Below, piece by piece: positions 3,001-6,000 of a stretch of DNA of 10,872 nucleotides; within the stretch, counting starts at the first letter, position 1, and every line of letters starts with the position of its first letter. Origin of the DNA: a virus (Duplodnaviria > Heunggongvirae > Uroviricota > Caudoviricetes); IMG/VR virus record IMGVR_UViG_2609459844_000005, positions 1-10,872 of that record. The stretch is one strand, 5' to 3'. The position numbers are program-made.

Positions 3001-6000
3001 TTGCGCATTGATGCCGAGATACGCTTCCAGTCTTCGCGGTCGTTGTCGATAACTTCATTTTTTGCCCAGCGATGGATGCTGCCGTCAATGTTTCCGGCAT
3101 CCACATCACCAGGCCAGAGAGCGTAGGCCAGTTCGTCATCCAGTGTTTTCCATGTCTGCTTGTATTCGCGATGAATGGCAGCAATGACCGGGTTGATTTT
3201 TCCTGTTGAATTTTCAGTGTGCTGTTGATTGGTTCTGGCGCGGGCGAGATCAACAACAGACGTGTATTTTCCAGTTTCCTTGCGTTCACCTTCGCGACGT
3301 TTTTTCCAGATGCGCATCTCTGCCTGAATTTCGGGCCATTTGGCACCAGGCTTACATTTATGCTTAACCCACCCGATGGCATGCAGCTTAAGCTCCGGAT
3401 ACATGGCGTTAACATCTGGCATTTTCATCAACGCTTCAACGATATGTCCGTCGAATGTTGCCATGTCTTCCTGCAACAATTCCTGTGCGCTAATAACCAT
3501 ATCAACGGTGATGTTTTCACATGTGTCGAACTTAACCATGACAGCGTTCTGTACTTCAGGGGCCAGCTTGTCAAAAGTGACGTTCATCGGATCGGATTCA
3601 GTCTCAACCGGGACAAAGGAAGCAGACTCCTCATCCCAGCGGTTTTCCTGCATATATTCAGCATCCCAGGAATCGAGGGCAGGGCGGGGTATACCGGGTT
3701 TATCCTCGCAAACAAGAAATTTATAAGCGCAGTCCTGAGCAGCCGGATAATGTTCCAGGAATTGCCAGTGAAATTTTGCTCGAGCACGGCGTTCGTCGCC
3801 AGCTTCAATGGCAGTGGCTACAGCGACTGCACCTTCTTCCTTTATTGCCTGTTCGTCCGGAATGGCGGCGCAAATAAAGACTTTACTCATTTTGTTTTAC
3901 CTCATTACAGATTTAAGGGTGAACAAATCCCTGCCATTGCTGGCATATAAGAATGAAATCGGATGTTTATTACGGAACTGTTTTAAAGACCTGCCGGGAT
4001 TTCGTTATTATCCTGGTGAATAACTTTATCGACCGGGTAACAGTTACCGGGAATTTTCTGTTCGGTTGCTGCAGTCACACACTCCTGCATTGTCCTGTGA
4101 ACACTGACTGCAATATCAACTGGCTCTCCGGAAACAAGAAAAACTGTCAGAACAAGTGCAAATGCTGTATTCATTGCCAGCATCCTTTTTGTATCGGACG
4201 TAAACGGGCCAGCATTGAAAGAATGCATATTTTATTTAATAGCTCCCGTTCGTGTTTTCTCTTGTTAATGGCATCTTCAGTAAATACAGGGTTACTGATA
4301 GTGACACCAATTTCAAAACAACCTTCAGACGTATTAACGTTTGGTAATAACGTTTCCATTATCGCGTCCTCAACAATGAATTTTGTGATGCGGTGCCTGG
4401 TGCCTCCAGGTGACGTTAACCAGTTAACAATTAACGCCGGATAACTCCGGATGGTTGGATAAGCTGTAGTGAGCGAATGCCGGATACCAAAACAGCCGTT
4501 CTTGTTGCCAGGGAGTTTGACAGGAAAGGTGACTGGCGAATGAAATGGGCGACTTACATCCCGGGTCATCCTGACGCTAATGATGGGTGGATAATACCTG
4601 GTGCGTCGTGGATACCATCACACTGGATGCCTCTACCAGAACCGCCGCAGGAGGTGCGCCAATGAACTGGCCTGAAGCATTTGCAATTACAGGCGTTGCT
4701 ATGGCTATCGCTTTTTTAGTATATGTTATTTGTCGGTGGGGGTAAAAACGTTCGCCGGGATTAACACCAAAGGAGGGAATATGTCGGATGATATATCACT
4801 GGCAATGGAAGGTGCGCTGGCTGTTGTTGCTGTTGTGGGCGTTTACTGCCTGGTTGTGTTTTTGATGGATCGACTAGGGAACTGAATTCATTACGATATG
4901 GGAATTCCCATATCGGGTAAAAACGGTTTGCGGTAAAGCGAGAGTTAAGTAGAATTGCAGCGGGTGCTTGAGGCTATCTGTCTCAGGCATGAACACCAAA
5001 AGGCAGATAGAGAAAAGCCCCAGTTAACATTACGCGTCCTGCAAGACGCTTAACATTAATCTGAGGCCCAATCTATGTCTCACAAATGTAGGTTAGCCTC
5101 TTACGTGCCGAAAGGCAAGGAGAAGCAGGCTATGAAGCAGCAAAAGGCGATGTTAATCGCCCTGATCGTCATCTGTTTAACCGTCATAGTGACGGCACTG
5201 GTAACGAGGAAAGACCTCTGCGAGGTACGAATCCGAACCGGCCAGACGGAGGTCGCTGTCTTCACAGCTTACGAACCTGAGGAGTAAGAGACCAGGCGGG
5301 GGAGAATCCCTCGCCACCTCTGATGTGTCAGGCATCCTCAACGCACCCGCACTTAACCCGCTTCGGCGGGGTTTGTTTTTTTCTGGCATTCTGGTTTACA
5401 ATTCGCACACCAGCCTGAACAACTGGCACCTGCTGCGCCAGCAGAGACAACCGATGGCGCACGATACCAAATTACACAATTCTGATGATTCTGCCGTCTT
5501 TGCCAGCAGGCACGGGCGGCGTTCCCGCACTTTCAAATCTGACTGGTTCCAGCATCCCCCATGCACTGAAGAACAGGCCGAGTGGCTAATTCAGTGCTAC
5601 CGCAGACACGGATACGAGATTAAGAAAGCCCTCAGCCTCGATTATCGTCACTGGATAATCTCCGTCAGGCTTCCTTACTCCGAACGCCCACCGCGTCCGT
5701 CCCGCACATTCCAGCAACGCATCTGGAGGTAACGTGCGGGTATTACTTCGACCTGTTCTGGTACCGGAACTCGGGCTGGTGATCGTTAAGCCGGGCCGTG
5801 AATCCATGCCGGTATTCCACAATACCCGGGTACTGGTGGAGCCGGAACCGAAAAGCATGCGTAATCTGCCGTCCGGGGTCGTTCCTGCCGTTCGCCAGCC
5901 GCTGGTGGAAGACAAAACATTGCTGCCGTTTTTCAGTAACGCACGGGTAATTCGTGCTGCTGGTGGTGCTGGTGCATTGTCTGACTGGCTGTTGCGCAAT

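Follow-up and report, generated by a model that had tools for sequence, protein, structure and literature searches.

Organization and identity of the hok/sok locus

The DNA analysed here, referred to throughout as the window, is the 10,872-nt stretch spanning positions 1 to 10,872 of the IMG/VR virus record IMGVR_UViG_2609459844_000005. It carries a type I toxin locus of the hok family, situated in the late-early (nin-like) region of a lambdoid prophage, that is very probably a canonical and intact hok/sok cassette of the hokD/hokW type (Table 1). Presence, conservation and covariation could be documented for every element of the cassette, and promoter and toxin are identical to those of homologues that have been tested experimentally. 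The cassette is already known, being of an ordinary type carried by the prophages of most Escherichia coli strains. In the NCBI annotation pipeline the gene is named hokD, and its PHROG group, 251, is "MokW-like".

A preliminary description, made from the sequence alone, had placed a complete-looking hok/mok locus at 4886–5390. The cassette proved real, but its bounds had to be corrected to approximately 4928–5382, leaving bases 4886–4927 upstream and outside. The other structural assignments of that description all held: the protein is of the HokD/Gef type, it is preceded by an in-frame Mok-like extension of 19 codons, and a terminator with a UUCG tetraloop follows the gene. Nor were any inactivating mutations found in Hok relative to functional homologues.

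The excluded upstream bases contain a perfect 22-bp palindrome, CGATATGGGAATTCCCATATCG, at 4894–4915, with an EcoRI site at its centre and unrelated to the cassette. It lies between the stop of a small open reading frame (ORF; 4885) and the hok −35, is followed by no T-run on either strand, and was found in locus L002 only among 58 loci checked.

The 51-residue Hok (MKQQKAMLIALIVICLTVIVTALVTRKDLCEVRIRTGQTEVAVFTAYEPEE; MKQQKAML...AYEPEE) matched Pfam HOK_GEF (PF01848) over the full model, positions 1–42, with E = 3e-23, and PHROG 251 ('MokW-like host killing', phrog_251) with E = 8e-33. It is 100% identical over its 51 residues to HokD of E. coli K-12, and identical at 48 of 51 to HokW of prophage Sp5. 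NCBIfam Hok models were matched below their strict cut-off (48.5 bits against 73), because these equivalog models are narrow and not because membership of the family is in doubt. A Hok survey (10.1101/2025.08.07.668861) employed the HokD peptide, known from previous overexpression studies, as a toxic control when assaying toxicity.

Table 1. Coordinates of the cassette elements and of neighbouring features in the window
Feature	Position	Strand	Description
hok/sok cassette	4928-5382	+/-	
Putative hok promoter	4928-4955	+	-35 TTGCGG 4928-4933, 16-nt spacer, -10 TAGAAT 4950-4955
Full-length hok mRNA	4962-5382	+	predicted 5' end G4962; 3' end at terminator T-run
tac (translational activator element)	4962-4973	+	GGGUGCUUGAGG, mRNA 5' end
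ucb / anti-Shine-Dalgarno	5015-5021	+	AAGCCCC; columns invariant in 36 loci
mok Shine-Dalgarno	5063-5066	+	GAGG, 8 nt upstream of mok ATG
Sok target hairpin (sokT)	5068-5100	+	third hairpin of the Rfam structure and of the fold
mok ORF	5075-5287	+	70 codons/70 aa, in frame with hok
hok toxin gene	5132-5287	+	51 aa, ATG 5132; Shine-Dalgarno AAGGAG 5117-5122
TadA-type A-to-I editing motif	5269-5275	+	UUACGAA; Tyr47 codon UAC 5270-5272, editable A5271
fbi (fold-back inhibition element)	5336-5348	+	CCUCAA-C-GCACCC, one C bulged when paired to tac
Intrinsic terminator	5355-5382	+	AACCCGC-UUCG-GCGGGGUU then U-run; UUCG tetraloop (CCCGC-UUCG-GCGGG and T-run 5357-5382)
Sok promoter	5090-5118	-	-35 TTGCCT 5118-5113, 17-nt spacer, -10 TAACCT 5095-5090
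Predicted Sok antisense RNA	~5085 to ~5013	-	~70 nt; single-stranded 5' tail, long hairpin, then UUUUC; ends predicted
int	1-1119	-	
xis	1088-1366	-	
Exonuclease	1419-3890	-	
DUF1482	3983-4228	-	
dicB	4171-4359	-	
DUF551 gene	4477-4665	+	
Small ORFs	4587-4885	+	
rem-like ORF	5454-5732	+	
DUF968	5734-6789	+	
rusA	6790-7170	+	
Q antiterminator	7167-7988	+	
DNA methylase	8563-9612	+	
Three tRNAs	9662-9908	+	Ile, Arg, Arg by annotation of relatives
STnc100 small RNA	9989-10179	+	full-length, 139 bits

Structure and covariation of the hok mRNA

The leader of the hok mRNA was recognized by Rfam family RF01794, which matched 4962–5137 on the plus strand over the whole model (1–157 of 157), far beyond chance, at a score of 120.1 bits (gathering score 59; E = 1.5e-27). 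Despite the family label 'sok', the strand matched by the model here is the hok-sense one, that of the hok mRNA leader. The −10 of the putative hok promoter ends 6 nt before G4962, at which the Rfam model starts. Among the upstream sequences listed, from Escherichia, Kluyvera, Photorhabdus, Pantoea and Citrobacter, a −10-like hexamer (TAGAAT, TAAGAT, TACAAT, TATAAT or TATATT) likewise occurs 6–7 nt upstream of an invariant GGG.

With the RNA elements defined as in PMC9841398, positions 4962–5381 gave a minimum-energy fold of −165.8 kcal/mol (z = −5.6 relative to shuffled sequences). Pairing between the two ends of the mRNA, proposed as a check in the preliminary description, is present in this fold: tac (4962–4973) pairs with fbi (5336–5348), and GCCCC of ucb (5017–5021) pairs with the mok Shine-Dalgarno GAGGC (5063–5067). 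As modelled, the full-length molecule is in the published 'closed', untranslatable conformer. When fbi was removed, the predicted fold contained a 5′ metastable hairpin of 4964–4974 with 4980–4990. Besides fbi, tac can pair with ucb, as in the Rfam structure, or with 4980–4990 in the metastable hairpin. The Rfam consensus itself represents the 'open' form, in which tac is paired with ucb and the target hairpin is closed by GAGGC/GCCUC (mok Shine-Dalgarno/dcb). This hairpin holds the mok AUG (5075–5077) in its stem, the loop CUCACAA (5079–5085) with a YUNR-like CUCA, and dcb (AGCCUC, 5095–5100).

The structure was compared across relatives. Scanning one genome for each species yielded 53 loci. 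Alignment A1 was built from 35 non-redundant ones that have tac as well as fbi, together with the Sp5 locus (L001) and the window, 36 sequences in all, with sources in Escherichia species, Shigella, Kluyvera, Pseudocitrobacter, Citrobacter, Pantoea and Photorhabdus. RNAalifold recovered from A1 the tac–fbi pairing, the leader hairpins and several helices in the coding region, with 16 pairs showing double changes. When the closed structure of the window was imposed on A1, 87% of the cells could pair, as against 40–47% with the partners slid by 1–3 columns; 30 pairs carried compensatory changes, and none of 500 shuffles reached the observed values. Across the 36 loci tac is either invariant or covaries with fbi, with compensatory changes at two pairs (U4:A to C4:G in 11 of the 36, and G12:C to A12:U), and a tac–fbi duplex of −17 to −28 kcal/mol was retained in all 19 loci tested.

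Conservation extends to the proposed editing site at the end of hok. The UUACGAA motif forms the loop of a small hairpin; TACGAA is invariant in the 36 loci, and the 3-bp stem that flanks the motif covaries (A1 columns 309–311 with 321–323: CG in 21 and UA in 14; GC in 22 and AU in 12). TadA-mediated A-to-I editing at this site, changing Tyr to Cys, has been reported for hokC, hokD and hokE of K-12 (PMC5630033).

Individual copies in the collection depart from this pattern. In one E. coli copy (L007) tac is mutated and the leader contains indels, a hokC-type copy in Shigella flexneri (L049) carries frameshifts, and loci from Photorhabdus (L047) and from IMG/VR (L135) have unrelated upstream sequence where the leader should be.

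The predicted Sok antisense RNA

The preliminary description had expected regulation by a Sok-like antisense RNA on the minus strand around 5050–5130, and had failed to find a promoter for it. A promoter, TTGCCT-17 nt-TAACCT, was in fact located, and in the alignment this stretch is base-for-base identical to the sokW promoter of Sp5. There, a change in the −10 of plus-strand TAGGTTAGCC to CCGGCTCGCC (primers YO-421/422, YO-421 being that for the plus strand) abolished antitoxin function (PMC8621323, Takada et al. 2021). The expected interval covers the promoter and the 5′ half of the predicted RNA, which continues beyond it to ~5013. The minus-strand sequence at 5012–5086 folded with −30.3 kcal/mol (z = −5.5), and the predicted length is close to the 71 nt of complementarity that was reported for sokW (PMC8621323). 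At the level of sequence, the locus appears to encode Sok in cis, with its own promoter and with complementarity to the mok translation-initiation region, and the supposed reliance of hok on such an RNA is likewise supported.

A hypervariable target hairpin and the mok frame

Variation within the transcribed cassette was examined among loci that encode an identical Hok. Nucleotide diversity among 66 distinct sequences, from 75 full-leader loci of this kind, peaks at 5062–5091, an interval shared by the target hairpin, the 5′ tail of Sok and the N-terminus of Mok; there is virtually no variation in tac, ucb or the Sok −35. The 75 loci (IMG/VR loci L059–L138) contain 17 variants of the target hairpin, all of which keep the hairpin closed by GAGGC/GCCUC together with the mok ATG. 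Tentatively, the ~25 nt at 5068–5094 (Sok 5′ tail, target hairpin and Mok N-terminus) might be a rapidly diversifying specificity determinant that keeps co-resident cassettes orthogonal, so that each Sok silences its own hok only. Against such orthogonality, the other ~45 nt of Sok are nearly identical between variants, which favours cross-talk. If it were true, the cassette could still enforce retention of a single prophage remnant, for instance one without its immunity region.

The same region bears on the meaning of mok. Its ATG is kept at the same position in at least 90% of the 36 diverse loci of A1. The 19-codon in-frame extension is present in 64 of the 75 identical-Hok loci, and in the other 11 a 2-nt indel abolishes it, presumably leaving mok in another frame as in plasmid R1, where the classic mok lies in a reading frame different from that of hok. 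In-frame Mok is not a conserved protein feature; the frame differs between relatives. The loss of frame in 11 loci supports the view that translation of mok matters, and not the Mok peptide. The idea that in-frame Mok is a meaningful isoform of Hok was rejected, given these 11 loci without the extension; it is also countered by the coincidence of the Mok N-terminus with the hypervariable, RNA-constrained hairpin.

Comparison with characterized hok systems

The closest characterized system is hokW-sokW of the Stx2 prophage Sp5/VT2-Sakai (E. coli O157:H7 Sakai). Nucleotide identity is 93% over 4918–5358, both cassettes reside in lambdoid prophages, and tac, ucb, the mok Shine-Dalgarno, dcb, fbi and the Sok −35, spacer and −10 are identical. 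Mok of the window resembles MokW, which is in frame in Sp5 too and begins MLNTC... where the window has MSHKC.... Further differences are found in the HokW C-terminus (VDYESEK against TAYEPEE), in the target hairpin plus Sok 5′ tail, where 7 of 25 nt differ, and in the terminator, which is unrelated to that of the window; since homology ends at 5358, the terminator falls outside the shared core. The two loci occupy different places in their phage genomes, and the prophage of the window is without an immunity and replication region. The module they share measures ~440 bp, starting 10 nt before the hok −35 and stopping 10 nt after fbi. As the homology is bounded by the edges of the cassette and the flanking genes are unrelated to those of Sp5, the cassette behaves as a discrete mosaic module.

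The experiments on Sp5 (PMC8621323) showed that HokW arrests growth and that sokW, expressed from its own promoter, counteracts it, the antitoxin activity depending in part on RNase III and Hfq. After mitomycin C treatment sokW vanished and HokW accumulated in the inner membrane in a RecA-dependent manner. Deletion of hokW-sokW delayed growth arrest by ~40 min and halved phage release, and had no growth phenotype without induction.

A different relationship links the window to hokD (relF) of K-12, which belongs to the relBE-hokD operon of the cryptic prophage Qin. Besides the identical toxin, nucleotide identity is 98% over 5118–5380, including fbi and the terminator, and the downstream order hokD-rem-ydfU (DUF968) is the same. 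The homology does not reach further upstream than 5118, 14 nt ahead of the hok ATG. K-12 hokD is without the hok promoter, tac, ucb, Sok target, mok start and Sok promoter, and has relB-relE in their place. Because all of the cassette upstream of 5118 is missing, the K-12 gene is a truncated derivative and the window has the complete form. The absence of relB and relE from the window, remarked on in the preliminary description, was borne out: among the ORFs scanned at positions 1–9612 no RelB or RelE domain was detected, and the operon arrangement of K-12 does not occur there.

The relE 3′ flank (...GCGTTGACAG) that is fused immediately ahead of the hok start codon in K-12-type loci (L004, L008) is also present in Kluyvera sp. 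CHPC 1.2972 (L029), the Hok of which is only ~70% identical to HokD. The relBE-hok fusion is therefore not confined to Qin of E. coli, and is either old or was spread by recombination.

Comparison with hokC/sokC and with hok/sok of R1, as had been suggested at the outset, showed tac, fbi, ucb and dcb to be conserved in both. The hokC/sokC (gef) locus shares the architecture with an in-frame mok (mokC), and Hok is 80–82% identical in hokC-type loci. It differs in being chromosomal and outside prophages, in an upper leader hairpin that is ~18–20 nt shorter (A1 columns 73–92), and in the hexamers of its Sok promoter; the K-12-like hokC is moreover disrupted downstream (L017, without fbi). The hok/sok (parB) locus of plasmid R1 and its IncFII relatives belongs to the same Rfam family, and its elements align one by one: tac GGCGCUUGAGGCU, ucb AGCCCC, Shine-Dalgarno GAGGC, mok AUG, dcb AGCCUCUUAC, hok Shine-Dalgarno AAGGAGAAG, UACGAA and fbi. 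The leader hairpins of R1 differ in length from those of the window, and R1 hok/sok is plasmid-borne with a proven role in post-segregational killing. R1 Hok is only 44% identical to HokW (PMC8621323), itself 48/51 identical to the Hok of the window.

Distribution

Matches to the 505-nt stretch at 4886–5390 were found in 4939 of 5426 complete E. coli genomes, with at least 80% query coverage in 3830; the median was two matching places per genome, with a maximum of 9. The full leader is present in 4268 of the 5426 genomes, as against 1173 with the relE junction of K-12. These counts led us to reject the notion that a hok locus without relBE is unusual. The form without relBE is the common and complete one, and relBE-hokD of K-12 a truncated, derived minority. 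Loci with identical Hok in IMG/VR have a similar composition: 77 could be classified, of which 74 have the full leader and 2 the relE junction.

There were also matches in 102 phage records, among them Stx-converting phages; the annotations there include 'gef', 'MokW protein' and 'host killer protein'. The top phage match (97.7%), PP818812.1, is labelled 'Actinobacillus phage vB_Apl-pPE4', and identical hok fragments occur on contigs of 275–431 bp in assemblies of Acinetobacter idrijaensis and Xanthomonas pisi (L019, L024). The host labels of these three entries seem to reflect contamination with, or the mislabelling of, prophage DNA from E. coli.

Prophage context

The genes that surround the cassette (Table 1) run from int to a DNA methylase, followed by tRNAs and STnc100. 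Placed downstream of the Q antiterminator and methylase, the tRNAs and STnc100 follow the usual layout of the late-regulatory region in Stx-type lambdoid phages; the protein scan of the window, which extended to 9612, identified no stx gene.

Upstream of the cassette, the region just upstream of dicB, in the early-left operon, is joined directly to the interior of the DUF551 gene, with the junction at ~4437–4452 (within 4340–4540). Related prophages (L002, L003) hold ~5 kb at this point, with ydfABC, a LexA-family repressor, cro, ydaT and replication genes, all of which are absent from the window. The dicB/DUF551 junction occurs in none of the 5426 complete E. coli genomes of the collection. 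On this evidence the element is probably a non-inducible, non-replicating remnant arising from a strain-specific deletion, or else the junction is an assembly artefact. A search around the junction for DicF and further RNA families gave only a sub-threshold match resembling STnc100 (19 bits, E = 0.13), which was treated as chance.

Proposed mode of action and alternatives

By the paradigm of R1 hok/sok, the promoter at 4928–4955 would produce a stable mRNA of ~420 nt starting at G4962. In the full-length RNA, pairing of the 5′ tac with the 3′ fbi, and masking of the mok ribosome-binding site by ucb, would keep mok and the translationally coupled hok silent. Slow trimming of the 3′ end would then remove fbi, upon which tac would move to ucb and expose the mok start in the target hairpin. 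An unstable Sok of ~70 nt, made constitutively from the minus-strand promoter at 5118–5090, would bind this hairpin through its 5′ tail, and RNase III would cut the duplex. Where synthesis of Sok stopped, or Sok was titrated out, Mok and then Hok would be translated, and Hok, a 51-residue peptide of the inner membrane, would depolarize the cell. Editing of the Tyr47 codon by TadA, in creating a Cys, may add a second layer of control. For the source strain we infer transcription, processing, killing and any biological role by analogy; killing or arrest by Hok, neutralization by Sok and cleavage by RNase III would follow from the experiments on hokW-sokW and from HokD being a known toxic control.

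Several points weigh against this reading. A generic sigma-70 consensus scan called neither the hok nor the Sok promoter; the hok promoter was missed because its −35 is weak, agreeing with the consensus at only three of six positions, and both promoters were placed by homology and conservation. Expression of the cassette is deduced from sequence. The Rfam 'open' structure was not reached by the minimum-energy fold of either the 3′-truncated RNA or the isolated leader; it evaluates to −31 kcal/mol, the minimum for the leader being −58 kcal/mol, and the step of refolding to the open conformer is not claimed from thermodynamics. The tac/ucb and Shine-Dalgarno/dcb pairs can form and are 100% conserved, so covariation neither supports nor rejects them; this invariance is expected because the segments have two alternative partners. 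No PADLOC defence model matched Mok/Hok or their neighbours. Lastly, the chromosomal loci hokA, hokB and hokC do not mediate post-segregational killing, according to the passages of 10.1101/2025.08.07.668861 and PMC5630033 that cite Pedersen & Gerdes (1999), and an intact sequence is therefore no guarantee of a killing phenotype.

This last point is also the starting place for a cassette that is intact but physiologically silent, being transcribed and repressed by Sok, and not killing when rifampicin is given or the element is lost; such a cassette would be carried along in prophage mosaics as a selfish, neutral passenger. The chromosomal hok loci are described in the same passages as giving neither post-segregational killing nor a rifampicin response, the hokW-sokW deletion mutant grew normally when uninduced (PMC8621323), and the module moves as a unit whose bounds of homology with Sp5 are its functional bounds. 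We consider such silence possible, if on balance improbable, since strong conservation of all regulatory elements, together with covariation in the RNA structure, argues for selection on a circuit of regulated killing; HokW is, moreover, made and active on induction of Sp5 (PMC8621323), and HokD is used as a toxic control. The cassette could instead serve abortive infection or phage exclusion, or act as an addiction module that stabilizes a decaying prophage, in that a shut-off of host transcription by an infecting phage, or loss of the element, would deplete the unstable Sok and free Hok. The survival of the cassette in a prophage remnant without an immunity region fits this possibility. We nevertheless hold it to be rather doubtful in view of the missing PADLOC match, and of the finding in the Hok survey that hok is not enriched next to defence systems (10.1101/2025.08.07.668861).

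A role in lysis would follow the example of Sp5, where RecA-dependent HokW and the late arrest and halved phage release of the deletion mutant (PMC8621323) show that SOS induction removes Sok and lets Hok build up in the inner membrane ahead of the action of holin and endolysin, for earlier lysis and approximately twofold greater phage release. The 93% identity of the two cassettes and the identity of their Sok promoters would favour the same function in the window. The missing immunity and replication segment weakens it here, as an element without the ~5 kb of repressor, cro and replication genes can probably be neither induced nor replicated, and the position within the phage differs from that in Sp5; we think it unlikely. 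Also missing from the window are the phage early promoters on which hok would depend if it were expressed solely by read-through from upstream phage genes, with no functional antisense partner, as the preliminary description had envisaged as grounds for abandoning its view. The failure of both promoters in the generic scan, and the small ORFs on the same strand directly upstream, would agree with read-through. It is nonetheless highly improbable: the −10-like hexamer keeps its distance from the invariant 5′ GGG among the upstream sequences listed, tac must be at the 5′ end of the mRNA to work, and the Sok promoter does not differ from that of sokW, which has been validated by experiment.

Significance

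The NCBI pipeline reports none of the Sok RNA, the mok frame, tac, ucb, dcb or fbi, and their coordinates are now supplied. Beyond this correct annotation, namely that the window holds a complete and presumably autonomous hokD of the hokW-sokW type, the significance of the finding is small. In the source strain the role of the cassette could be addiction to the prophage remnant, phage exclusion, or silence. If active, it could influence the retention of decaying prophages, the outcome of superinfection, and phenotypes of membrane depolarization such as persistence.

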